From Gammaproteobacteria bacterium (GTDB lineage: Bacteria > Pseudomonadota > Gammaproteobacteria > Eutrophobiales > Eutrophobiaceae), in assembly GCA_965205405.1 (NCBI GenBank), contig OZ242169.1, positions 136,896 through 200,895 on the forward strand: 64,000 nucleotides of DNA, read 5' to 3'. Positions 52,586-64,000 of the stretch are shown here, one piece after another. Position 1 is the first letter of the stretch, and every line of letters begins with the position of its first letter. Under the pieces are notes generated by a model, which made no database searches, was not told the DNA's origin, and was given only the letters and a program-made list of their open reading frames with translations. The translations under genes and the position numbers were made by a program.

Positions 52586-54427
52586 TTACTGTGGGTTGTC
52601 GATGCCCTTGTCTTCTTCCAGGAGCATTGCGCTGCGTGGCGCAAGTTGTTTAATGGCGAACGTATCGGTAAAACGTCCCAGTTCCTGTGCAGACCAGACA
52701 TCGCGCAACTGCGCCGGACGTCGCAGTTTTATGGATACGTCAATCGGAGTTTCACCGCTGTTGAAGGCTGCGTAATATATCTTTTCCGGTTTCTCAATTG
52801 TCACAACGACATTGTCAATATCCTGGTAAACCGGAGCGCCGCCCGGCGGTTGCATTAAATCAAGTTTCCCCATTGTTTCCGGCGATAATAAAGTCAGATC
52901 ATCTCCTGACAGCAAAATACCTCCGGTCATGAAGATGCTCGTCCAGTGGTATTGAAGTTCCGAAGCGGATAATTCACCGGCAAACGTGTGCAGTCCCGCT
53001 TCTCCGGCAAGCAATACCGAGTCCGGGTCCACGTGCCACAATCGACCATTCTGCCAGGCGCGAAAAAGATTCTGACCAGATGTCATTTTGACTGATTTCC
53101 AGGTCGGATAGATGTCTTCCGAGCTTCTTGACCCCTCTATCAGGCCCAGCGAAGCCCAGTTTACGTGGTTGGCAGCGGTAATGAAGCTGTCTTCTCCCAT
53201 AGCTCGCCGGATTGCCGATAGCCCCTGCCGGTAGGCTTCAATCCTGGTCTTGTTCCCGTCATGGAGGCGGCCGCCATGCATCGCCGCCCAGAACAGCGCG
53301 TCCAGTTTATAATATTTAATTCCCCATTCATGACGCATAACACGAAAGAGATCCTCCAGGTATTCGGTGACGTGGGGATGGGTACAGTCGAGCACGTACC
53401 AGGGATCACCTCGACCAAACCCACCGAAGGTCACGAGGTCGGAGCGCAGCGGTTGGCCGTTATCATCCCTGATAAACCACTCGGGATGATATTGAAACAG
53501 GTGCGAGGTACTGTCTGCGATAAAAGGCGCTACCCAGAGGCCCGGTTCGAAGCCGCGTGCGCGAATCGCACCTGCCAGTTCGCCCAGAGAGGCCCCGAAT
53601 TCAGGGCGCGTCACCAGCCAGTCACCCATGTGTTCCTGGTAACCGTCATCTACCTGGATAATTCTGATCGGGGCAGGTATGGTCTTGAGTGTATCGACTA
53701 CTCTTGTTACCTGTTCGGCCGTCACTTCGTGCCCGAAAGATACCCAGGAGGACCAGCCGACGGGTGGGGAGGCTGATATGCGCGGTTTATGCTGAATACG
53801 GATAGCTTCGGCCAATGATTCCAAAAGTGAATTCCTGCCGGGTCCCATGGCAAACATAAATTCCTCCAGCCTCCACGTCTCACCCGGCAGCAGTGATATG
53901 CCTTCGGCCTCGAGAACAACAGAAATTTCACCGGAATGAAAGCGCATAATACCCTGGAAACGGCGGCAGGAAGTAAAGGCGAAAAGAACGGTCTCCGCCT
54001 GAGGTGGCGTCAACAGCGCCATGTTGTATACGGTAAGAGCGCCTTCAGCCTGCGGCAGCTTGTAGTGGTCCCTGTCAGTGTGCTCACCGATATCCACGGG
54101 TGCGCCCAGGCTGCCTCCCGTTTGCGACAGCATGGTAAAACCCTCACCATAGAGCGCAGTCTCAGGAGGCATTTGATGGAAAATACGGAATAAAACTATT
54201 TCCTCTATGCTGACCGGTACATCAGCCGTATTTTTCAAGGTGAAGCAGGCCGTATTTCCTGTCCAGGTACGTTCCAGGACGATTCTTTTTCTGTCAACGA
54301 AACCAGTCTGCCGCAGAATAATCTCATATCCGGTATTTTTAACCATATCAAGCGTGATATAGCCGGATGTGCTTTGAATTTGTGACGCGCTGGCTGCATT
54401 CACCTGCCCGGGATCATTTTGCAACAT
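52586..54427 (-). CDS. Glycoside hydrolase family 36 (alpha-galactosidase/alpha-GalNAcase-like)
   Basis: PVGWSSW, IQVDDGY, GLWVAPF, YYKLDA and RSSEDI motifs; no clear signal peptide. Confidence 0.88.
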   Translation of the reverse strand: MLQNDPGQVNAASASQIQSTSGYITLDMVKNTGYEIILRQTGFVDRKRIVLERTWTGNTACFTLKNTADVPVSIEEIVLFRIFHQMPPETALYGEGFTMLSQTGGSLGAPVDIGEHTDRDHYKLPQAEGALTVYNMALLTPPQAETVLFAFTSCRRFQGIMRFHSGEISVVLEAEGISLLPGETWRLEEFMFAMGPGRNSLLESLAEAIRIQHKPRISASPPVGWSSWVSFGHEVTAEQVTRVVDTLKTIPAPIRIIQVDDGYQEHMGDWLVTRPEFGASLGELAGAIRARGFEPGLWVAPFIADSTSHLFQYHPEWFIRDDNGQPLRSDLVTFGGFGRGDPWYVLDCTHPHVTEYLEDLFRVMRHEWGIKYYKLDALFWAAMHGGRLHDGNKTRIEAYRQGLSAIRRAMGEDSFITAANHVNWASLGLIEGSRSSEDIYPTWKSVKMTSGQNLFRAWQNGRLWHVDPDSVLLAGEAGLHTFAGELSASELQYHWTSIFMTGGILLSGDDLTLLSPETMGKLDLMQPPGGAPVYQDIDNVVVTIEKPEKIYYAAFNSGETPIDVSIKLRRPAQLRDVWSAQELGRFTDTFAIKQLAPRSAMLLEEDKGIDNPQ

Positions 54428-54545: not shown

Positions 54546-56315
54546 TCATGACTTTAATCCTTGTGTTACAGCCTTGAATTTTTTATGAACTACCAAAGCC
54601 GCTACCAGGGTAACTAACGAATAAAGACCGGCCATTGACCAATTTCCGAACAAAGCATAGCCGGACGCAAATAACAGGCCAAAGATAAAGAGAACGCTGG
54701 CCGACCAGGCGATGGCATTATCCTTAAACCCGACATCCAGCGGCGCTATGTCGGTGATGCGGCGCACCCGGCTCCAGCCTGCCCCTTGTATGCGCATGCG
54801 TTTGTAGAATTCAACTGCTTGTGATGAGGGTCCATCCCGGGTCGTCAGATATGTGACGGCAATACATACCACTGTCGTCACTATGAAGTTAATCAGCATC
54901 CTGACGGCAAACCAGTCCTCGCCGGGCTGGTCCGGGAGCAGAATAAATAACAGGTTCCCGACTATGGCGGCCGTCGCCAGGGTGACTATCTCAGACCAGA
55001 TGTTGATACGCCACCAATACCAGCGGGCGATGAGCACAAAAGATATGCCTCCCCAGAAAACAAACAGGTATTTGTAGGCATCGAGCAGGCCTGTCAAGCG
55101 GGTGCCGATCAGGATTGCAATGACTATCAGCACGGCCATGGCACAGCGGGCAGCCGTAACGTAATGCCTCCTGTCACGTCCCGGCGCCAGGTAGGGCTGG
55201 TAGATGTCATTAATGATATAGGACGCTCCCCAGTTCATGTGCGTATCCAGGGTACTCATAAACGCCGCCAGCAGCGAGGCAACCATGATTCCCTTCAGAC
55301 CAATCGGCAAAAAGGCATCTATCATCTCCGGATAGGCCTGCTCCGCATCGGCCAGCGTCGGGAAATAGACCAGGGAGGCAACACCCACGATGATCCAGGG
55401 CCAACTGCGCAGTACGTAATTGCAAAAGCAATACCAGTATATACTCAGCATGGCGTCCTTCTCAGAACGGGTGGCAAACACCCGTTGCAGGTAAAAGCCG
55501 GTGCCCGGAGCGAGAAACAGCCAACTCACCGTAACAAGAATGAAAAACGTGGCCGTCTCCAGGTCCCAGCCGAACTCAGGAAACATGTTCAACTGTTCCA
55601 ATCGAAATTCCGGCACGGTCTGCAATTGTAACAACACCCCTCCCTTGGCGGACAGGTCAAGCCAGACGATGACCGCCAGGGCAATCGCGCCCACCATGGC
55701 CAGGGTAAACTGGATCAGGTCGGTATACACCACACCGTACAGACCAGAGAGTACGGTGTAGAGCAGCGCGCTGAATCCCAGCAGCGCCAGGAGAGCCAAA
55801 TCCGGGGTAACCGGGCCCAGCAGCGGCAACAGGAACAAAGGCTCCCGGGATAACCCCAGGATGACGGCCAGGATCTTCGACATGGCCAGGGTCACGGAGG
55901 CCATGATTATGCAGTTTACGAACACCCCGTCGAACAATGCCTTGAACATTCGCAGGCCGTGCATGGCCCTGCTTGTGTCATAACGCCTGCTGATGAACTC
56001 TATTTCCGTCAACACCCGTGAACGGCGCCAGAGCCGCGCAAAGAAAAAAACCGTTGCCAGTGTGCCCAGGACGCCTGCCCACATAATCCAGACCGCGTAA
56101 ATTCCTTCTTCCCGCACCGCGCCGGCCACCCATAGAGGCGTATCCGATGAGAACGTCGTGGCCACCATGGACGTCCCTGCTATGTACCAGGGCAGGGAAC
56201 GGCCGGCGACAAAAAAATCCGTCGTGCTGGCGGCCGCCCGTTTTACGAAATAAAAACCGATCAGCAGGGCTGCGCCCACATATAGGCCGACGATACTCCA
56301 GTCAATCCAGGTCAT
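54546..56315 (-). CDS. Sodium:solute symporter family transporter
   Basis: DFFVAGRSLPW…SMVATTFSSDTP, GLYGVVYTDLIQF, QRVFATRSEKDA and AAFMST motifs. Confidence 0.92.
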   Translation of the reverse strand: MTWIDWSIVGLYVGAALLIGFYFVKRAAASTTDFFVAGRSLPWYIAGTSMVATTFSSDTPLWVAGAVREEGIYAVWIMWAGVLGTLATVFFFARLWRRSRVLTEIEFISRRYDTSRAMHGLRMFKALFDGVFVNCIIMASVTLAMSKILAVILGLSREPLFLLPLLGPVTPDLALLALLGFSALLYTVLSGLYGVVYTDLIQFTLAMVGAIALAVIVWLDLSAKGGVLLQLQTVPEFRLEQLNMFPEFGWDLETATFFILVTVSWLFLAPGTGFYLQRVFATRSEKDAMLSIYWYCFCNYVLRSWPWIIVGVASLVYFPTLADAEQAYPEMIDAFLPIGLKGIMVASLLAAFMSTLDTHMNWGASYIINDIYQPYLAPGRDRRHYVTAARCAMAVLIVIAILIGTRLTGLLDAYKYLFVFWGGISFVLIARWYWWRINIWSEIVTLATAAIVGNLLFILLPDQPGEDWFAVRMLINFIVTTVVCIAVTYLTTRDGPSSQAVEFYKRMRIQGAGWSRVRRITDIAPLDVGFKDNAIAWSASVLFIFGLLFASGYALFGNWSMAGLYSLVTLVAALVVHKKFKAVTQGLKS

Positions 56316-56407: not shown

Positions 56408-59137
56408 TCAGAAGGATGCACGCACCCCGAATTCAACACGCGGGCCGACCGTTGCCAGGGACACCGGACGGTCCGGGCTGTCCGAATAGAGCTTTGTGTC
56501 TTCATCGGTCAGGTTCAGGCCGCTGACAAAAACGGTAAAATTATCATTGAAGAAATAGCTGAGCGACGCGTCCAGTTGACCATACTCGTCAACGTACTGC
56601 GTATTGCCGAATACGTCGGAGGGTAACAGTACGAATTCACTCCTGAACGACCAGGCCAGGCGCGCCTGGAATTTACCTTTTTCGTAATAGCCGGTCAGGT
56701 TGTAACTGTAGTCGGAGACCCCTGCAAACGGTATCTCCTGACCTTCGTTAGCCCCAGAGGTAAATTCCGCGGAGCTGTCAATCACCGTTGCATTGAGTAT
56801 ATAGCCGAAACCATTATCAAAGGCCTGCTGGTAACCGGACTCAAGACCAATGATTTCCGCTTCACCCTGGTTCAGGGGCTGGGTAACGCTGTTGAAGTTC
56901 ACGTCGAACAGAGTCACGTCAGTCGATGTGCTGCCACCGATAAACTCATCGATCTGTTTCCAGAAAGCCCCTATGTAGACGGCGCTGCTGTCAGCAAAAT
57001 ACCACTCCAGACCCAAATCATAGTTCATTGATTCATAGGCAACAAGCTCCGGGTTACCGGCTCTTGCAATCCGCTGGGTCGGGTTTGCGACCGAGAGACC
57101 GGGCCTTAAGTCATCAAAGGTCGGGCGAGTGAGCGATTTATTTGCGGAAAAACGCAGGAACAAGTCATCCTTTAATTCAAACCGCAGGTTCAGGCTGGGC
57201 AATACATTGATGTAATCACTGCCGACTGTCCACGGCACAATTTCCTCACCGAGAGCTACCACGCTGCCCAGCGTGGTGACCGGATCATTGTCGATCCTGA
57301 AAGGTTGATTATAGCCGGTGACATCCGTCTCCGTGCGCACAATCCTCACGCCCACGTTGCCAAGGTAAGGGATACTGCCGATCTCACCCTCCAGTTCCAG
57401 TTGCGCATAGGCCGCGAGGGTCTGCTCATCGGTCTTGTATGAATCCACCGGCTTATACTCTACGTCAAAACTGGAACCGGGGACATTGGCAAGAATGTAT
57501 GCCCTGGAACTGGGGATATCAGGAAAGGGCACCTGTCCGAAAGGATAAGAGCTATCACCGTCAAGGAAATTACCAACGCGGAACGTCTCGATACCGGCAG
57601 CAGGAATGTTACCCGTGAATACGTTAAACGTGGTGTAATCCTGCACTTCCTTGGTCCGGTCACGGTAGCGCACCCCTAATTTCACCCTTTCGGCAAATAC
57701 GGCGTCCAACCCAACCGAAAATTCACTGTCATCATTGTAGCGCTCAACCGAATCCGCATTCCGAGTTACATAGTTGGATATATCGGACAGGTCAGGGCCA
57801 CGGAAATTACCGACATCTACCTGTCCGCCACTGACCCGGACATCAAAAGTAGAACGCTCCGTAGTCTGCAGGCCATTACGCAAAAAGTTCTGTTCGCCCT
57901 CTGCCTTGGAGTAAGCTATGTCAAAGTTTAAATCAGCCCAATCCGACAGGGAAAAATCATAGTTCAGGCCGAGACCGAAGACCGTATCGTCAACCTGCTG
58001 AACATCCGTCAGCGCAAGAACGATGGAGTTCGCGGTAAAATCCGTTAATGTGCCATTATCATTGATCGCCGCATCCACCGTCACACTCCCATCGGGATTG
58101 GCAGCCATGCCAACAGTGCCGAATTCCATTGCTCTCCAACCGGCAACGGCGCCACAGCACTCCATGACCGCTGATTTCACGCCCGAGGTATCGATATTCC
58201 GTTCCGAGTAAAACACGTCCGCCGTCAACTCATGGCCGTCACCCACTTCCCACTGCAACGTACTGGCAAGGGTCAGGCGGTCACGGTCCTCAGAGAAACT
58301 CGCAGGTAAGGCGGCACTCGTCGTGACATAGTCCGACAGGTCCCCCACACCGTCCCCGTTAGTATCGAGCACGACTGCAGGCGGACAAAAACTGTCCGAG
58401 GTACACCAGCCGTAACTGTCATTATTGTCCTCCCGGATGTATCGTTCCGAGTAGGAGACACTGCCCAGCCAACCAAATGTTTCGTCCTCACTGACCCAAC
58501 TGAACAGGCCGGCAACAGTCGGCTCAACATCCTCGTTGAACATGCGATAAGCACCCTTGACAGAACCGACAATCTTGTTGCCGAGGTCAAGGGGCCGATG
58601 GGTATGAACGTCAACCACACCACCCATGCCGCCTTCAACGTGCTCTGCTGACGGGGATTTCACCACCTGGAGCGAATTGATGATGTCCGCAGGCAGGAGG
58701 TCGAAGTTGGTCTTACGGCCGGAGGTATCCTTCAGTCCGCCGTTGCGCGTTGCCTGCCGGGATTCGGTAGCACTCAGCATGGTGCGGCCGTTGACGGTGC
58801 TCCGAACAAACTTAGGACCCAGACCGCGGATGGAAACAAAGTCACCCTCCCCGCGGTTACGCTGGATGGCAACGCCTGCCACCCGCTGCAGGGCCTCTGC
58901 GATATTCGAGTCGGGTAATTTACCCACTTCCTCGGCGCTGATGGCATCGACAAAGTTCGTGCTGTCCTGCTTCACAGTCAATGACTCCTGCAGGGATTTC
59001 CTGATGCCCCTGACCACCACTTCTTCTATCACCTCAGCCGATTCCTGGCTGTAAACATTACCCGAGCCCAGAATAAAACCCGCCAGCAGCGTCGCGGGCA
59101 CCAGGGAAACTGTAAATATTCGCTTGTAAATAAACAT
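56408..59137 (-). CDS. TonB-dependent receptor (carbohydrate-locus type)
   Basis: IEEVVVRGIRKSL, DAISAEEVGKLPDSNIAEALQRVAGV, SIRGLGP, GGMGGVVDV and C-terminal GVRASF. Confidence 0.94.
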   Translation of the reverse strand: MFIYKRIFTVSLVPATLLAGFILGSGNVYSQESAEVIEEVVVRGIRKSLQESLTVKQDSTNFVDAISAEEVGKLPDSNIAEALQRVAGVAIQRNRGEGDFVSIRGLGPKFVRSTVNGRTMLSATESRQATRNGGLKDTSGRKTNFDLLPADIINSLQVVKSPSAEHVEGGMGGVVDVHTHRPLDLGNKIVGSVKGAYRMFNEDVEPTVAGLFSWVSEDETFGWLGSVSYSERYIREDNNDSYGWCTSDSFCPPAVVLDTNGDGVGDLSDYVTTSAALPASFSEDRDRLTLASTLQWEVGDGHELTADVFYSERNIDTSGVKSAVMECCGAVAGWRAMEFGTVGMAANPDGSVTVDAAINDNGTLTDFTANSIVLALTDVQQVDDTVFGLGLNYDFSLSDWADLNFDIAYSKAEGEQNFLRNGLQTTERSTFDVRVSGGQVDVGNFRGPDLSDISNYVTRNADSVERYNDDSEFSVGLDAVFAERVKLGVRYRDRTKEVQDYTTFNVFTGNIPAAGIETFRVGNFLDGDSSYPFGQVPFPDIPSSRAYILANVPGSSFDVEYKPVDSYKTDEQTLAAYAQLELEGEIGSIPYLGNVGVRIVRTETDVTGYNQPFRIDNDPVTTLGSVVALGEEIVPWTVGSDYINVLPSLNLRFELKDDLFLRFSANKSLTRPTFDDLRPGLSVANPTQRIARAGNPELVAYESMNYDLGLEWYFADSSAVYIGAFWKQIDEFIGGSTSTDVTLFDVNFNSVTQPLNQGEAEIIGLESGYQQAFDNGFGYILNATVIDSSAEFTSGANEGQEIPFAGVSDYSYNLTGYYEKGKFQARLAWSFRSEFVLLPSDVFGNTQYVDEYGQLDASLSYFFNDNFTVFVSGLNLTDEDTKLYSDSPDRPVSLATVGPRVEFGVRASF

Positions 59138-59324
59138 TACTATCTACCTCCTGACTAATTCAAGTTATCGCCCAGGAAGTATTACACAGGTATTTTTTAT
59201 ATGCAACACATTTTTATAAATAAAACAGTGAACCGAAAATTCGGATGTTTCAATGCGTATCAGTCCACATTCACAGTTTGAATAAAACGACCTGCCTGCC
59301 ATTGCATTATCGGTCGGCCCCATG

Positions 59325-59343
59325 GGGTTAAGTTGTCAGTACC
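59325..59343. mobile_element. Solo IS6 terminal inverted repeat
   Basis: GGGTTAAGTTGTCAGTACC is an 18/19 match to the TIR at 47151-47169 and supplies the nagB stop codon. Confidence 0.75.
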
Positions 59344-60112
59344 CCATGTTTTGTTCATGGACTCTTTTATAATAGAGTTTTAATTCCAGTTTCGAGGCTG
59401 CCGCTTCATCAATAAGGACAGTCGCCTTCCGGTGCAGTTGCAATACGGACGCGGGGCAAATGGAAGTAACCGGACCTTCAACCATTTTCTGAACTGCAGC
59501 CGATTTACTGTGCCCGGTTGCCATCAACAAAATCTGGCGCGCTTCCATGATCGTTGCGATACCCATCGTGATTGCAAGATGTGGTTGATTATCATACGGG
59601 CCGAACAACCTGGAGTTGTCAGATATGGTCTTGTCCGACAGGGTTTTGACGCGGGTACGGGAAGACAGGCTCGACGTTGGTTCATTAAACCCGATATGAC
59701 CGTTGCTGCCTATTCCCAGCACCTGCAGTTCGATGCCGCCGGCGGAGTAGATTTTGTCCTCGTACAAGCGGCTTACGGTTTCCGGATTTCCATATTCAGG
59801 GCACTCCGGCAGGTGGGTATTTTTATCATCTATATCCACATGATCAAACAGTTCACGCTTCATGTAACTGCGGTAACTCTGCGGATTGTCCGATGCCAGT
59901 CCCAGATATTCATCCAGGTTAAACGTGGTTACCTTTGTAAAACTGACATCACCTACCCGATAGTGGGAGATCAGTTTCCCGTACATGGCGATGGGCGTAC
60001 TACCGGTAGCCAGTCCCACCACTACATCCGGCATTTGCCTGATCAGGGTACAGAGTCGCCGGGCGCCTTCCTGAGCAACCATATCCGCATTTTTCAGGAT
60101 GATCACTTCCAC
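59336..60112 (-). CDS. nagB: Glucosamine-6-phosphate deaminase
   Basis: GLATGSTP, FNLDEY, LGIGSNGHIGFNEP, TMGIATI and CPASVLQLH motifs. Confidence 0.96.
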   Translation of the reverse strand: MEVIILKNADMVAQEGARRLCTLIRQMPDVVVGLATGSTPIAMYGKLISHYRVGDVSFTKVTTFNLDEYLGLASDNPQSYRSYMKRELFDHVDIDDKNTHLPECPEYGNPETVSRLYEDKIYSAGGIELQVLGIGSNGHIGFNEPTSSLSSRTRVKTLSDKTISDNSRLFGPYDNQPHLAITMGIATIMEARQILLMATGHSKSAAVQKMVEGPVTSICPASVLQLHRKATVLIDEAAASKLELKLYYKRVHEQNMGY

Positions 60113-60121
60113 TTTATTTAT

Positions 60122-60961
60122 TCATCCATACCTGCTGATGCGATTTATCACGTCATCAGTAAAATCGGAAAAAACGGCTTCCATGAAATCACTGTAGCTG
60201 ATATGTTCATTCAGCACGAGGCCGCTGAGATCCATCGCCAGGGTTATCGCCGAGGATTGATCAACAGTGTGTGATTGATCAAAGGTGGCATGGGCGGACT
60301 GGCGCCCCGGCAGGGCTTGATCATAACGCTTGGCTCCATGGATCTGGGACTCAAACACCCGGATTAATTTATTGAACAACTCGGCGTGTTCACTGATGTC
60401 CAGTCGTATCCGTTTCCCCTCCGGCAACCAATCCAGATCACGCCAGACCTCAATACCGTACACGTTTACCGGCCTTATTGCCTTCGGCAGCTTACGCAGC
60501 GCTTCCAACGCATGAATACATACGGCTATATGCGTCTCATGACGATCAGCCAGGTTATGTAAATAAACCGTGTCGGGATGGGCCAATGTCAGGTGGTCAA
60601 CCAGACATCTAACCAGTGACGGATTGATTCGACCTTTAATCTCATCGCTGTTGAAACCCAGTTGCGATACAGATGAATATTCACCCAATCGCGCGGCGCG
60701 TTGCTGCTCCGCCATACGGATAGCAATCATTTCCGCATCGGAAACGTTCCGGAAGGCCGGACCGCGGGGAGAGCCGGCGCCATTTGTCACCACAATACCG
60801 GTAAACCATTTATCGGTAACCTCGTAACAGCGACAGATGCCGTGAAATCCGATGATCTCGATGTCATCGGGATGGGCCGCTATTGCCATGTGCGTTGTAC
60901 GGGACAGGGCCTGTATTACAGTTACAGCGTCCGGAACATACGATTTAATATGACTGTTCAC
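60122..60961 (-). CDS. PIG-L/LmbE-family N-acetyl-sugar deacetylase
   Basis: AAHPDD metal motif, TNGAGSP, RMAEQQRAA and HNLADRHETH second motif. Confidence 0.85.
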   Translation of the reverse strand: MNSHIKSYVPDAVTVIQALSRTTHMAIAAHPDDIEIIGFHGICRCYEVTDKWFTGIVVTNGAGSPRGPAFRNVSDAEMIAIRMAEQQRAARLGEYSSVSQLGFNSDEIKGRINPSLVRCLVDHLTLAHPDTVYLHNLADRHETHIAVCIHALEALRKLPKAIRPVNVYGIEVWRDLDWLPEGKRIRLDISEHAELFNKLIRVFESQIHGAKRYDQALPGRQSAHATFDQSHTVDQSSAITLAMDLSGLVLNEHISYSDFMEAVFSDFTDDVINRISRYG

Positions 60962-60991
60962 CGGATAAAGAGGTAAATCCGAATCTATAAA

Positions 60992-61990
60992 TCAAAATTT
61001 ACTATACCTGCCATCAGGTTGCGGAAGCGTATTTCTGGCCAACTGCGCTGCAGCCAGCGCCGGCGACCAGACCGGGTCAGTCACCACCAGCTTGTTATTG
61101 GCGCGTTGCAGCCGGCTTTGCAAGGCACTGCGTAACGTAGTCATCTTTTCCAGGCAACTGCCGAACATCCCGATTTTGACTTGCTTATTCCTGAAACCTC
61201 CATCACGCCAGGTAGCCAGTGCCAGTCGGGCGAGTTCATCCGCCGCCTGTTCAATGATTTCGCAGGCGATACTGTCACCGGCCAGTGACGCCTCATAGAC
61301 GTGTCGGGCAAACGCGGCAATCTCAACGTACTCCTTGATGAGATATGGCGCTTCATCAATACTTTTCAATGAAAATACTTCCATGACTTTCCCGGCAAGT
61401 GAAGTATCTGATTCCATCCGTTTTGCCGCTCGTATTGCTCTGCGGATACCCATTAAACCGATATGGTATCCACTGCCCTCGTCCGACAGGATGTGCCCCA
61501 TACCACCTTTAACCACAGTCTTGCCCTCGGGGCCGACGGTAAATGACGCGGAACCTGTTCCGGAGATCAATGCAATAGCCGGATTTCCCCGGTCAATTCC
61601 ATACCAGGCTATGTACGCGTCATTGACCAACCGGATATTGTCCATAAAATTCAGGGAATACAGTTTATTCAACAAAGCGGTACTTAACCTGTCACCCGCG
61701 TCACTGATACCGGCCAGTCCCAACACGGCATTTATCCCAAGCCGTTCGGACCCTGAGATTTTTTGAACAAGATCATCGAAAATCATCTTCAGGTTCTCGA
61801 AGGTTGTATCAACTCCCGAAACTGCAACATTAGCGGACCTGCCGCCCATCTCATGTATCAGCCTGCCGTCATAATCAATGGCAACCGCACGCGTCTTTGT
61901 TCCGCCGCCGTCAATCCCGATAAAGACAGATATTCTGTTTCCTGTAATCGTATGTCTCACAGGGTCGGGTTGCTGTATTACCGATACCAT
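60992..61990 (-). CDS. BadF/BadG/BcrA/BcrD-type N-acetylglucosamine kinase
   Basis: IGIDGGGTKT, NDAYIA, ISGTGS and GGMGHILSDEGSGYHIG motifs. Confidence 0.87.
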   Translation of the reverse strand: MVSVIQQPDPVRHTITGNRISVFIGIDGGGTKTRAVAIDYDGRLIHEMGGRSANVAVSGVDTTFENLKMIFDDLVQKISGSERLGINAVLGLAGISDAGDRLSTALLNKLYSLNFMDNIRLVNDAYIAWYGIDRGNPAIALISGTGSASFTVGPEGKTVVKGGMGHILSDEGSGYHIGLMGIRRAIRAAKRMESDTSLAGKVMEVFSLKSIDEAPYLIKEYVEIAAFARHVYEASLAGDSIACEIIEQAADELARLALATWRDGGFRNKQVKIGMFGSCLEKMTTLRSALQSRLQRANNKLVVTDPVWSPALAAAQLARNTLPQPDGRYSKF

Positions 61991-62152
61991 AATCTCTGCT
62001 TGTGCGCGACAAACATATATTTTTTATATGAAATAGTATTTTATTTGTTGATTATAGCAGAATTGTCAAACCTCCTGTCAGGAACAGCCTCCGGGCAGAT
62101 AAACAAGTGTGGCAAGGGGGGGTGAGATACGATACGCTGCGCCGCGGCGCGG

Positions 62153-62596
62153 TTAACCCGGATTTGCCGGACCAATGACGCCCTTCTTTAAGATGATATT
62201 GCCGTAGAGCCGCTGCTCGCCGGTGGCTACCGCCGCATATGCCGTCCTGACCCGGGCATAAAAATCGAAACGCTCCAGTGTGCCGAACGTGATTTCAGTG
62301 TCTGATCCGGACCTGACAATACGCCGGAATTCCTTAACGATCTCCGGCGCCGCTGCCGGGTCACCGACCACCTGCATGGTATGGACCGGACATTCGACAT
62401 AGGTATCCAGCGGCATTACCGATATCACGGCCTCGAGTACCCTGGTCGCGGAAATGCCATCCATGCGGATCAGGCGTTGAGCATTGGTTTCGGCCGGATG
62501 GTTGGCGTCGACGATGGCGACCTCATCGCCGTGCCCCATCGCCCTCAATACTTTAAGCAACTCCGGGCCAAGTAAAGGGTCAAGATTTTTCAACAT
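62153..62596 (-). CDS. RbsD/FucU-family sugar mutarotase
   Basis: MLKNLDPLLGPELLKVLRAMGHGDEVAIVDANHP, LERFDFY and TGEQRLYGNIILKKGV motifs; start set at 62596. Confidence 0.92.
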   Translation of the reverse strand: MLKNLDPLLGPELLKVLRAMGHGDEVAIVDANHPAETNAQRLIRMDGISATRVLEAVISVMPLDTYVECPVHTMQVVGDPAAAPEIVKEFRRIVRSGSDTEITFGTLERFDFYARVRTAYAAVATGEQRLYGNIILKKGVIGPANPG

Positions 62597-63731
62597 TACG
62601 CAAACCGTAGCTGTCAAAGCGCTCCCAGGTGTCACTCATATCCACCACCCGGCCTGTCCTGCGGGATTCATCCAGTTTGATTGCCGTTAAACCTGCTTCC
62701 AGGGAATCAAGAATTGATACCGACAACGGAATACCTTTATGGAAGTGCTCGGCCAGGGCTTTGGCCATCTGCTGTTCCGCCCCGTAGTGTTTGGAAACAC
62801 TGTTATCATAATCGTAAGTCTTATCGATGCGTTTCCTGGAGGAAGGGGCATCGTGGACACGGTAGAATGAGCGCACGAAATCGCCTTCCGCCATGCCCCG
62901 GGTACCGATAACGCAAAAGCGGCGGAAGTTGTCCGGGACATTCAGGTTGGTGTGAAAACACAGGTTGGCGCCGTTCGCATATTCGATCAAGGCGGTCTGG
63001 TAGTCGATCAGGTCAGTCTCATCACCAAAAACGCGACCGTTACCCTGCCATAAGGATTTTCTTTCATGATATATACCGATTGACTCCAGGTCCCCGTTGG
63101 CAGGGGTAAATGTCTTCCGTCCGCCAAAACTCACCACCCGTTCGGGCCGGCTCCCCAGGAGTTCCTGGTAAAGATCAAGGTCGTGTATGCACTTCTCCAG
63201 CATGAATCCGCCCGAAAAGGCCTCGTTGCGCCGCCAGTCACGCATAAAAAATGCGCCGTGCTCAGGCGGGATATGTTCAGATGCCTCTATACTGGTGATC
63301 TCTCCCAATTCTCCTGCTTCCACCGTGCTCTGCAAATCCATATAAAGCGGCGCGTAGCGCAACACCATGCCGACAATGATCCGGGCCGTCTCATATTTTT
63401 TCAGCAACTCCAGCAACTCGAAGGTTTGCGCCTCGTTCGTCACCACGGGCTTTTCGGTAAAGATACGGACGCCCGCTTCCAGCCCGCTCCGGATCTGTTC
63501 CAGGTGCAGGTGATTCGGCGAGCCGATCATCAGCAGGTCGATGGATTCTTTGGCAAGCATCTCATCGAGATCCGCATAGCCCACGGACTCGACAGCGCGT
63601 TCCCGCAGGTAGGGCAGACATGACGGCGCCGGGTCTGCATAACTTACAAGTTCAAAGTCCGGTATGTACTGGCGCAACAAACAGGCCAGGTAACTCATGC
63701 GGTAACCCAGGCCGCAAAGACCAACTTTCAT
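62580..63731 (-). CDS. Gfo/Idh/MocA-family oxidoreductase (amino-sugar cluster type)
   Basis: GLGYRM, IGSPNHLH, FTEKP, GMVLRYAP and FMRDWRR…GGFMLEKCIHDLD motifs. Confidence 0.9.
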   Translation of the reverse strand: MKVGLCGLGYRMSYLACLLRQYIPDFELVSYADPAPSCLPYLRERAVESVGYADLDEMLAKESIDLLMIGSPNHLHLEQIRSGLEAGVRIFTEKPVVTNEAQTFELLELLKKYETARIIVGMVLRYAPLYMDLQSTVEAGELGEITSIEASEHIPPEHGAFFMRDWRRNEAFSGGFMLEKCIHDLDLYQELLGSRPERVVSFGGRKTFTPANGDLESIGIYHERKSLWQGNGRVFGDETDLIDYQTALIEYANGANLCFHTNLNVPDNFRRFCVIGTRGMAEGDFVRSFYRVHDAPSSRKRIDKTYDYDNSVSKHYGAEQQMAKALAEHFHKGIPLSVSILDSLEAGLTAIKLDESRRTGRVVDMSDTWERFDSYGLRNVEKS

Positions 63732-64000
63732 AATCTGTTATTCACCTGTGTATGGTTACGGCGTTATCCATCGAAATCAATTCCTGAACGACATCCAATT
63801 TAATATCGTCTCAGCTCGGAATGTTATCCTAATTATTTTATATAAGAAACAAAAATTATGATATGAAATTATTGCAGACTGTTTCTACATGCCAGGGCAA
63901 GCAATCCGGCATCCCGCCTGATTTCTGCCGATGGCTTCCCCTTCCTGTACGGCGAGAAACCGTCCCGGCCGTATGCCGGTTTCCTTTCCCTTCTCCAGGA

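Follow-up and report, generated by a model that had tools for sequence, protein, structure and literature searches.

Organization of the locus

Within the window, i.e., the whole stretch of 64,000 nucleotides that was analyzed, three genes encoding a sugar kinase, a protein of the PIG-L/LmbE fold, and a glucosamine-6-phosphate (GlcN-6-P) deaminase (NagB) follow each other closely. The initial annotation had read them in the order kinase, PIG-L deacetylase, nagB, and the open reading frames were indeed found exactly where it had placed them, all on the minus strand, with gaps of 30 bp between the kinase and PIG-L genes and of 9 bp between the PIG-L gene and nagB. The trio and its surroundings comprise the following features:

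52586-54427, minus strand: GH36-like glycosidase (weak Melibiase Pfam match), a neighbor of the trio
54546-56315, minus strand: sodium:solute symporter, 589 aa (PF00474)
56408-59137, minus strand: TonB-dependent receptor of the Xanthomonas/Caulobacter carbohydrate type (TIGR01782, 640 bits), directly downstream of nagB
59336-60112, minus strand: NagB, glucosamine-6-phosphate deaminase, 258 aa (TIGR00502, 288 bits)
60122-60961, minus strand: predicted PIG-L/LmbE-fold zinc deacetylase, 279 aa (PF02585), proposed GlcNAc-6-P deacetylase in place of NagA
60992-61990, minus strand: BadF/BadG-type (eukaryotic-NAGK-like) sugar kinase, 332 aa (PF01869, 99 bits), proposed GlcNAc 6-kinase
61991-62152, minus strand: upstream intergenic region of the trio, with the 13-mer CATATAAAAAATA at 62018-62030
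63885 onward (L010:1781-3286): metal-dependent amidohydrolase (Amidohydro_3), 501 aa, whose gene starts two genes upstream of the trio

The TonB-dependent receptor would probably provide outer membrane uptake for the locus. The symporter aligns along its whole length with a 589-aa SSF of another PIG-L locus (L096), whose gene directly follows nagB there (36% identity, E = 3e-107). It is a probable inner membrane amino sugar transporter, and both genes would belong to the locus. The best PDB match of the GH36-like glycosidase was a Thermotoga alpha-galactosidase (E = 5.5e-47), and no GH20 was found in the genome. The 13-mer CATATAAAAAATA recurs upstream of the receptor gene at 59191-59203, so that two of its four exact copies in the genome lie here; when one mismatch was allowed, it showed no enrichment over the control. 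As evidence, the shared 13-mer is weak. A scan for promoters and terminators gave counts no better than those in shuffled sequence, the sole clear terminator being a hairpin plus T run at 56372-56346, after the receptor gene.

The deaminase and the kinase

The deaminase scored 288.3 bits against TIGR00502, over the cut-off of 236.9 bits, and 327 bits against NF001684. It aligned with Vibrio NagB, its H139 and E144 corresponding to His143 and Glu148 (E. coli numbering), and its C terminus is 6 to 8 residues shorter than those of its nearest relatives. It also retains two residues of the allosteric site at which E. coli NagB binds GlcNAc-6-P, Arg158 and Lys160 (PMC4281351), which B. subtilis NagB lacks. 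Among the NagBs linked to PIG-L, these two residues are present in the Gram-negative ones and missing in the clostridial ones; they are also missing in the NagB-PIG-L fusions. Because this pattern tracks taxonomy, they lend weak support as reporters of GlcNAc-6-P.

The kinase matched the BadF/BadG/BcrA/BcrD ATPases (PF01869, 99 bits). Among the NCBIfam models, NagK_SO3507 (NF046058) matched best, with 92.7 bits, below the equivalog cut-off of 370; on these scores, it is a member of the PF01869 superfamily only and not a Shewanella-type NagK. The best PDB matches were the MurNAc/GlcNAc kinase MurK (8zo3, E = 8.5e-28) and human NAGK (2ch5, E = 2e-15). Compared with the sugar sites of MurK and NAGK (PMC10465942), the window kinase has the sugar-loop asparagine, but the aromatic residue that covers the N-acetyl group (Trp38 in NAGK, Phe34 in MurK) is replaced by Ala. 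As the same study states that GlcNAc specificity is not readable from structure, we derive no sugar specificity of the kinase from this comparison.

The PIG-L protein represents an uncharacterized subfamily

The PIG-L protein belongs to the PF02585 superfamily, with 45.1 bits over residues 25 to 148 (cut-off, 28.2). The motifs highlighted by the initial annotation were found intact, as AAHPDDIE at residues 28 to 35 and DRHETH at residues 139 to 144, and include the zinc/catalytic motifs (A/P)HxDD (AHPDD, 29 to 33) and HxxH (HETH, 141 to 144). In an alignment of 61 homologs, D32 and H144 were invariant, and H30, D33, and H141 were at least 90% conserved. The same 61 proteins share a subfamily-specific motif, GGKRYD...GRR.ANATF, in which K211 is near-invariant and R220 is invariant; these conserved basic residues would suit a phosphate group.

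An AF2 model of the protein (pLDDT 97.2) was predicted to adopt the Rossmann-like LmbE fold, with Foldseek probabilities of 1.00 to Dac, BC1534, BshB, TT1542, and MshB. The best matches were archaeal Dac (8bgo and 3wl4), BC1534 (2ixd), and BshB, with TM scores of 0.60 to 0.65. Against BshB1 (TIGR04001), the protein scored 27.9 bits with a cut-off of 182.5 and thus falls outside this equivalog. It has no amidohydrolase domain and belongs to NagA (TIGR00221) neither by sequence nor by fold; at most, it would be a functional analogue of NagA. It is a member of a compact, uncharacterized subfamily of ~280-aa proteins that is spread over many phyla and occurs in at least 583 of ~186,000 species genomes.

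NagA was not found in the genome or in its relatives

No NagA (TIGR00221) was found in the whole 3.47-Mb, single-contig, 97% complete genome, the best match reaching 25 bits (cut-off, 226). A search of 24 same-family genomes at E ≤ 1e-20 likewise gave no match. The concern of the initial annotation that a nagA just outside the window might serve the locus was not borne out: the amidohydrolase encoded at the edge of the window does not appear among the TIGR00221 matches and is unlinked to the trio in two sister genomes, its ortholog lying ~1.3 Mb from the trio in G061 and not adjoining it in G065. It falls in the D-aminoacylase family (PRK09061, 185 bits), and its neighbors, a D-Ser-dehydratase-like PLP enzyme, RidA, and IclR, match the OngB/OngC/OngD set, which degrades N-acetylglucosaminic acid (PMC9537276). 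By family and context, the protein is D-aminoacylase/OngB-like and not a NagA. Its relatives in the homology scan came mainly from Burkholderiales and MAGs, and none came from Pseudoalteromonas.

PIG-L and NagA are complementary among genomes

We sampled 201 Verrucomicrobiota genomes, each at least 90% complete, and used raw per-genome counts, which ignore kinship. PIG-L was present in 54 of them, about a quarter, and NagA in 132; both were found in 11 (2 of these over the NagA cut-off) and neither in 26. The anti-correlation with nagA that the initial annotation had proposed as a check was indeed seen in this phylum, with an odds ratio of 0.055 (Fisher P = 6e-16; n = 201, kinship ignored). 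The 11 genomes carrying both proteins count against replacement. Among the 146 genomes with NagB, 111 had NagA only, 18 had PIG-L only, 9 had both, and 8 had neither. In Acidobacteriota, NagA scored over the cut-off in 0 of 15 PIG-L-positive genomes (the unpublished G338 included) and in 33 of the 136 others (P = 0.04, kinship ignored). Because the same complementarity is expected if deacetylation comes first, it does not settle the order of the steps.

MurQ is rare in Verrucomicrobiota (22/201), and PIG-L occurs in 2 of the 3 genomes with MurQ and without NagA, about the base rate. Three PIG-L-positive genomes have no NagA match and carry either MurQ (G186 and G234) or a NagE-type PTS adjoining a MurQ-like gene (G040); judging from these genes, they would make GlcNAc-6-P without a kinase.

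PIG-L recurs beside kinases and deaminases

Within the genus, only 3 of 23 members (G000, G061, and G065) have a PIG-L ortholog. NagB is found in exactly these three, adjoining PIG-L, and the trio is the only block common to their loci. We extended the analysis to the neighborhoods of 80 PIG-L loci from more than 10 phyla. Across the subfamily, a sugar kinase gene almost always precedes PIG-L. Directly upstream of PIG-L, 57 of them harbor an unannotated ASKHA kinase-like gene of ~465 aa (K464), and some carry APH-type or PfkB kinases instead. A GlcN-6-P deaminase lies beside PIG-L in ~24 of the 80 loci, either as NagB or as a GlmS-isomerase/NagB-II-like SIS protein; scores against AgaS (TIGR02815) were only 27 to 30 bits. 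No NagA or MurQ was found within 8 kb of PIG-L in any of the 80 loci, and general clustering of the neighboring proteins revealed no recurrent glycosidase cluster.

Two fusions join PIG-L to a kinase. The first, P0125 (606 aa), combines a BadF-type kinase half and a PIG-L half that are 35% and 48% identical, respectively, to the window proteins; its locus, L096, has the gene order TonB-dependent receptor, GH20, kinase-PIG-L fusion, NagB, SSF, DeoR. In the second, K464 and PIG-L share a single 787-aa frame. The two fusions are independent. The NagB-PIG-L fusions, invoked by the initial annotation as support for a functional link, turned out to be a poor argument. In the fusion from Verrucomicrobiota (P0275), the PIG-L half has lost the His/Asp motif, and BLAST found no similarity between it and the window PIG-L. 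This half is probably noncatalytic, because it reads SPEPLDD and has no HxxH. P0275 adjoins a separate copy of the window-type PIG-L subfamily.

A putative NagA-independent route to fructose-6-phosphate

The absence of NagA, the co-occurrence with NagB, the conserved gene order, the kinase fusions, and the anti-correlation with nagA all support the initial proposal that PIG-L is a candidate non-orthologous GlcNAc(-6P) deacetylase. We consider it fairly probable that the trio forms a NagA-independent route from GlcNAc to fructose-6-phosphate in which the kinase acts first and PIG-L serves as the GlcNAc-6-P deacetylase. The sugar would probably be imported by the TonB-dependent receptor and the Na+ symporter encoded downstream, and the BadF-type kinase would convert imported GlcNAc to GlcNAc-6-P. 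The PIG-L zinc hydrolase would then release acetate to yield GlcN-6-P; by analogy to MshB and Dac, His30, Asp33, and His144 would coordinate the metal, and Asp32 would be the general base. NagB, in keeping with its family membership, would convert GlcN-6-P to fructose-6-phosphate and ammonia. The lack of GH20 in this genome counts against the route, as it leaves no obvious origin for the GlcNAc. The module appears to have been acquired as a block by 3 of the 23 sampled members of a NagA-less genus; across the module, the kinase and the deaminase would have been exchanged for non-orthologous versions, while PIG-L stayed constant.

Phosphorylation before deacetylation is the order that we favor. 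It is suggested, indirectly, by the gene order, the K211/R220 motif, the PIG-L-positive genomes without NagA that would make GlcNAc-6-P, and Arg158/Lys160 of NagB. The foremost alternative is a bypass as in Thermococcales, in which PIG-L would deacetylate GlcNAc to GlcN before the kinase makes GlcN-6-P for NagB, so that NagA would be unnecessary rather than replaced. Indeed, the nearest folds, Dac (8bgo and 3wl4) and BC1534 (2ixd), act on unphosphorylated GlcNAc or (GlcNAc)2, the known PIG-L substrates are all nonphosphorylated, and no enzyme of the family (MshB, BshB, Dac, PIG-L, or BtrD) is known to act on a sugar phosphate. Moreover, the BadF/NAGK-type family has broad hexokinases among its members (e.g., Sulfolobus 2e2n), the Ala of the window kinase replaces the NAGK and MurK aromatic residues over the N-acetyl group, and the anti-correlation with NagA fits this order equally well. 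However, the order kinase, PIG-L, deaminase is kept in nearly all loci, and no glycosidase cluster recurs among the neighbors of PIG-L, whereas the archaeal route includes an exo-beta-glucosaminidase. In addition, GlcNAc-6-P arising from MurQ or a NagE-type PTS would be unusable by a deacetylase restricted to GlcNAc, the conserved basic cluster is specific to this PIG-L subfamily, and NagB keeps the residues of its GlcNAc-6-P site. We thus regard deacetylation as the first step as rather unlikely.

We also considered that PIG-L might act on another N-acetyl compound, such as GalNAc(-6P), ManNAc(-6P), MurNAc, an alpha-GlcNAc glycoside, or a GlcNAc-thiol conjugate, with NagB as a mere downstream neighbor. 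GlcNAc-alpha-1-X conjugates are the substrates for which the family is known (MshB, BshB, and PIG-L), a weak similarity to BshB1 was detected, the glycosidase at the locus is GH36-like rather than GH20, GH20 is missing from the whole genome, and the varied kinases (APH type or PfkB) of some loci would also fit. Nevertheless, the similarity to BshB1 (28 bits) is far under the cut-off, and the deaminase partnering PIG-L is either NagB or NagB-II, each of which is specific for GlcN-6-P, rather than AgaS. Furthermore, the fusion locus L096 combines GH20 and NagB, and the complementary pattern is specifically with NagA. Such a substrate therefore seems improbable. Finally, although the edge amidohydrolase is encoded close to the trio, its D-aminoacylase family, its Ong-like neighbors, and its separation from the trio in the sister genomes make it very hard to believe that this protein, or an undetected and highly divergent NagA, is the GlcNAc-6-P deacetylase and that PIG-L is unrelated to the pathway.

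Comparison with known systems

The window PIG-L resembles NagA (EC 3.5.1.25) in the reaction and the pathway position proposed for it, between a GlcNAc kinase or PTS and NagB, and the two show a strongly complementary distribution, with both in only 11 of the 201 Verrucomicrobiota. However, NagA is an amidohydrolase TIM barrel and PIG-L/LmbE is Rossmann-like; the two share no sequence similarity, and their metal sites differ in architecture. With archaeal Dac of Pyrococcus and Thermococcus (8bgo, 3wl4, and 3we7), the window protein shares the fold (TM 0.60 to 0.65) and the HxDD and HxxH zinc motifs, and the Dac chitin route is likewise a NagA-independent amino sugar catabolism ending at GlcN-6-P deaminase. 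Nevertheless, identity in the structural alignment is only 17 to 20%, and the phmmer match (E = 0.18, 14.5 bits) does not place the two in one family. Dac acts on unphosphorylated (GlcNAc)2 or GlcNAc and is partnered by the glucosaminidase GlmA and an ADP-dependent kinase, whereas the PIG-L module, beside which no glycosidase cluster recurs, has an ASKHA-type kinase, sometimes fused, and its PIG-L subfamily has a C-terminal motif of its own. The LmbE enzymes BshB, MshB, and BC1534 share fold and catalytic residues with the window PIG-L, but its context is catabolic (kinase, deaminase, and transporters) and not one of thiol biosynthesis.

The NagB-PIG-L fusions (NF002557, "glucosamine-6-phosphate deaminase-like protein," ~650 aa) bring these two folds together as well and adjoin K464-PIG-L in Verrucomicrobiota, yet BLAST detected no similarity between their PIG-L half and the window protein, of which they are not orthologs. 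A parallel in kind is given by the non-orthologous displacements NagK-I/II and NagB-I/II in the GlcNAc catabolism of Shewanella and Xanthomonas (PMC5583593). In these cases as well, an unrelated family has taken over a pathway step, as was recognized from gene clustering and complementary phyletic patterns; however, we found no alternative described for the deacetylase step in the literature searched. Our search, which reached few subscription journals, found no report linking PIG-L/LmbE to nagB or to the replacement of nagA.

Implications

NagA is treated as an obligatory step in the catabolism of GlcNAc and peptidoglycan sugars, and its absence is read as an inability to use chitin, mucin, or cell wall amino sugars. 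We see about an even chance that the PIG-L subfamily is a long-missed second bacterial GlcNAc-6-P deacetylase, the first PIG-L enzyme with a sugar phosphate as its substrate and one physically coupled to its kinase, and that K464 is a new family of GlcNAc kinases. The physical coupling is suggested because PIG-L and a kinase are fused in two independent architectures. If this PIG-L subfamily does fill the NagA step, metabolic reconstructions would be wrong for a range of environmentally important lineages, namely Verrucomicrobiota, Acidobacteriota, Chloroflexota, Hydrogenedentota, many Clostridia, and some Gammaproteobacteria, and the PIG-L subfamily and the K464 kinase, both devoid of functional annotation, would gain a function.

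A kinase, a PIG-L protein and NagB in a lineage without NagA

The initial annotation had read the order kinase, PIG-L deacetylase, nagB at this locus, with AHPDD and HETH motifs in the middle protein, and ORF calling, profile matches and inspection of the residues bore this out:

60992-61990, minus strand: BadF/BadG-type ASKHA kinase, 332 aa (ORF call)
60122-60961, minus strand: PIG-L/LmbE protein, 279 aa (ORF call; AHPDD at residues 29-33, HETH at 141-144)
59336-60112, minus strand: NagB, 258 aa, above the TIGR00502 equivalog cut-off

The three genes are co-directional with intergenic gaps of 30 and 9 bp, and an AT-rich stretch of 160 bp precedes the kinase gene. The NagB C terminus is 6 to 8 residues short of its closest relatives in two genomes of the genus, G065 and G061 (window 59336-59360). 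The 13-mer CATATAAAAAATA occurs identically 5' of the kinase gene (62018-62030) and 5' of the TBDR gene (59191-59203), and is possibly a shared operator for both. It has four exact copies genome-wide, and allowing one mismatch revealed no enrichment in the genome.

The source genome is a single contig of 3.47 Mb, 97% complete, in which the best match to the NagA model TIGR00221 reached 25 bits (cut-off 226). The same model matched in 13 of 14 control genomes, above the cut-off in 8. No NagA was found at E≤1e-20 among 24 genomes of the same family. A nagA just beyond the window could have served the locus, but the gene at that edge, two genes upstream of the trio, encodes a 501-aa Amidohydro_3 protein (window 63885 onward past the end; L010:1781-3286) that is D-aminoacylase-like (PRK09061) and absent from the TIGR00221 matches. 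Its relative in G061 (73% identical) lies about 1.3 Mb away from the trio.

Within the genus, a PIG-L ortholog was present in 3 of 23 members (the window's genome, G061 and G065), and NagB was found in exactly the same three, adjoining PIG-L. In the window, the trio lies between FucU and TBDR-SSF-GH36; its neighbors in G065 are zwf-pgl-edd together with a NagC-like ROK regulator, and in G061 gspJKLM and two MFS genes. Because these surroundings differ, the trio enters this NagA-less lineage as one unit.

A separate PIG-L subfamily with a wide distribution

A word-indexed search recovered 3536 relatives, nearly all of 275 to 290 aa and sharing 45 to 50% identity across phyla. Among cluster representatives, searched exhaustively with HMMER, 294 matched at E≤1e-30, and at least 583 relatives were confirmed when one genome per species was scanned. 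No solved structure was related by sequence, the best being Dac (E = 0.18). The AlphaFold model (pLDDT 97, built on 61 homologs) had as Foldseek neighbors the archaeal diacetylchitobiose deacetylases, BC1534, BshB, TT1542 and MshB, at TM scores of 0.5 to 0.65 and 14 to 20% identity. The protein does not belong to the Dac, BshB or MshB groups. Beyond the catalytic residues, H135, E171, W173, W178, Q206 and R220 are invariant in the subfamily, which has a basic consensus motif of its own (GGKRYD...GRR.ANATF). The protein is a member of the PIG-L superfamily within a distinct subfamily; it would work like NagA but is certainly not a member of the NagA family.

Flanking enzymes are exchanged around a constant PIG-L gene

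ORF calling and clustering covered 80 loci (L011-L090) in Acidobacteriota, Verrucomicrobiota, Chloroflexota, Clostridia, Hydrogenedentota, Planctomycetota, Armatimonadota, Thermotogae and further groups. Directly 5' of PIG-L, 57 of the 80 carried K464, a kinase-like protein of about 465 aa (for example P0124, L085:5215-6609). K464 matched nothing in Pfam, NCBIfam or PDB, but it carries ASKHA motifs (DLGASD, NDGE, GSSEAGG) and is a candidate for a new family of sugar kinases. The window's genome lacks K464 and has the BadF kinase in that slot; some other loci have a PfkB or APH-type kinase instead. A GlcN-6-P deaminase adjoined PIG-L in about 24 of the 80 loci, either NagB or a SIS protein of about 346 aa whose highest scores are to the GlmS isomerase domain and to NagB-II. 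ROK repressors were frequent nearby, and neither NagA nor MurQ was ever found within 8 kb. Around an unchanging PIG-L gene, non-orthologous enzymes have thus replaced one another at both the kinase and the deaminase step, as expected if the PIG-L enzyme has GlcNAc(-6P) as its fixed substrate and GlcN(-6P) as its fixed product.

Two independent fusions join kinase and PIG-L. P0125 (606 aa) combines a BadF kinase and PIG-L, 35% and 48% identical to the respective window proteins, in the order TBDR, GH20 hexosaminidase, fusion, NagB, 589-aa SSF transporter, DeoR, a plain chito-oligosaccharide/GlcNAc locus. The SSF at this locus and the window's 589-aa SSF are 36% identical along their whole length, so the window TBDR and SSF are probably parts of the system. 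The second is a K464-PIG-L fusion in a single 787-aa frame (G173:C142:1218-3578, L182). The NagB-PIG-L fusions that the initial annotation had invoked as a functional link are a poor argument for one: in the verrucomicrobial copy P0275 (L019:4500-6410; also at L035, L039 and L070), BLAST finds no similarity between the PIG-L half and the window protein, and that half reads SPEPLDD and lacks HxxH. Instead of deacetylating, this degenerate half may bind a ligand or have a regulatory role. Such fusions adjoin K464-PIG-L in many Verrucomicrobiota.

PIG-L and NagA are anti-correlated

An anti-correlation with nagA had been proposed as a check and was found in two phyla, in genomes that are related to each other and include many MAGs. 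Among 201 Verrucomicrobiota at least 90% complete, 54 had a PIG-L ortholog (E≤1e-30), 132 a NagA-like gene (E≤1e-40), 11 both (2 of them with NagA above the curated cut-off) and 26 neither (odds ratio 0.055; Fisher p = 6e-16, which overstates the case because the genomes are related). The 146 NagB-positive genomes divided into NagA only (111), PIG-L only (18), both (9) and neither (8). In Acidobacteriota (n = 151), NagA was above the cut-off in 0 of 15 PIG-L-positive genomes versus 33 of 136 others (p = 0.04, a significance likewise overstated by kinship); the 15 include the unpublished genome G338, on which the count partly depends, and 3 of them have weaker NagA-like matches. A deaminase was adjacent in 14 of the first 50 PIG-L loci, and just 1 of those 14 genomes had NagA.

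Adjoining sugar-catabolism genes

Upstream of the trio, the DNA encodes:

62153-62635: FucU-like mutarotase
62580-63731: GFO/IDH/MocA oxidoreductase
63885-64000 and beyond (L010:1781-7984 = G000:C1:200780-206983): D-aminoacylase-like amidohydrolase, D-Ser-dehydratase-like PLP enzyme, SDR, GHL10-like protein, RidA, IclR
L010:7981-12024: fuconolactonase-like amidohydrolase_2, altronate/galactarate-type dehydratase, SDR, FAH-family hydrolase (genes of a non-phosphorylative L-fucose route)

The block from 63885 resembles, by enzyme type, the OngB, OngC, OngD and OngR set of the oxidised-chitin pathway, which converts N-acetylglucosaminic acid to KDG in Pseudoalteromonas (Jiang et al., PMC9537276). 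The oxidoreductase and the mutarotase could feed this block. With the listed GTG start at 62635, the FucU-like ORF shares 56 bp (62580-62635) with the end of the oxidoreductase gene; the true start of the ORF is probably further downstream, since the Pfam match starts at residue 17. The L010:7981-12024 region is a sugar-catabolism island.

Order of the steps

The complementarity with NagA fits two step orders alike: phosphorylation first, with PIG-L acting on GlcNAc-6-P, or deacetylation of free GlcNAc first, following the archaeal logic. To our knowledge, all characterized PIG-L enzymes act on non-phosphorylated substrates, and the closest folds act on free GlcNAc or chitobiose; both points speak for the archaeal order, which we nevertheless consider the less likely of the two. 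The sequence of the kinase gave no clear sign of which sugar it prefers. Phosphorylation first is favored on indirect grounds: the gene order kinase, PIG-L, deaminase is constant, the basic cluster is conserved and peculiar to the subfamily, no recurrent glycosidase partner appears among the neighbors in the 80 loci, and three PIG-L-positive genomes without a NagA match make GlcNAc-6-P without a kinase. Two of these, G186 and G234, carry MurQ. The third, a Polyangiaceae MAG (G040), has one cluster that joins a NagE-type PTS EIIBC (595 bits) with an 898-aa ORF and a MurQ-like etherase (genes 9681-14794 of L186, G040:C67:12000-31900), a route to GlcNAc-6-P that requires a deacetylase. Of the E. 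coli activator site for GlcNAc-6-P, the trio NagB also keeps Tyr121, Glu148, Ser151, Arg158 and Lys160; positions 158 and 160 are His and Val in the non-allosteric B. subtilis NagB. This adds slight support, but the pattern tracks taxonomy. PIG-L is thus probably a GlcNAc-6-P deacetylase.

Cases of non-orthologous displacement in the GlcNAc pathway have been described before for its kinase and its deaminase (PMC5583593), and our full-text literature search found no report of it at the deacetylase step. Both the pathway and the superfamily are known; the proposed assignment of this enzyme to this step would be undescribed and is well supported computationally.
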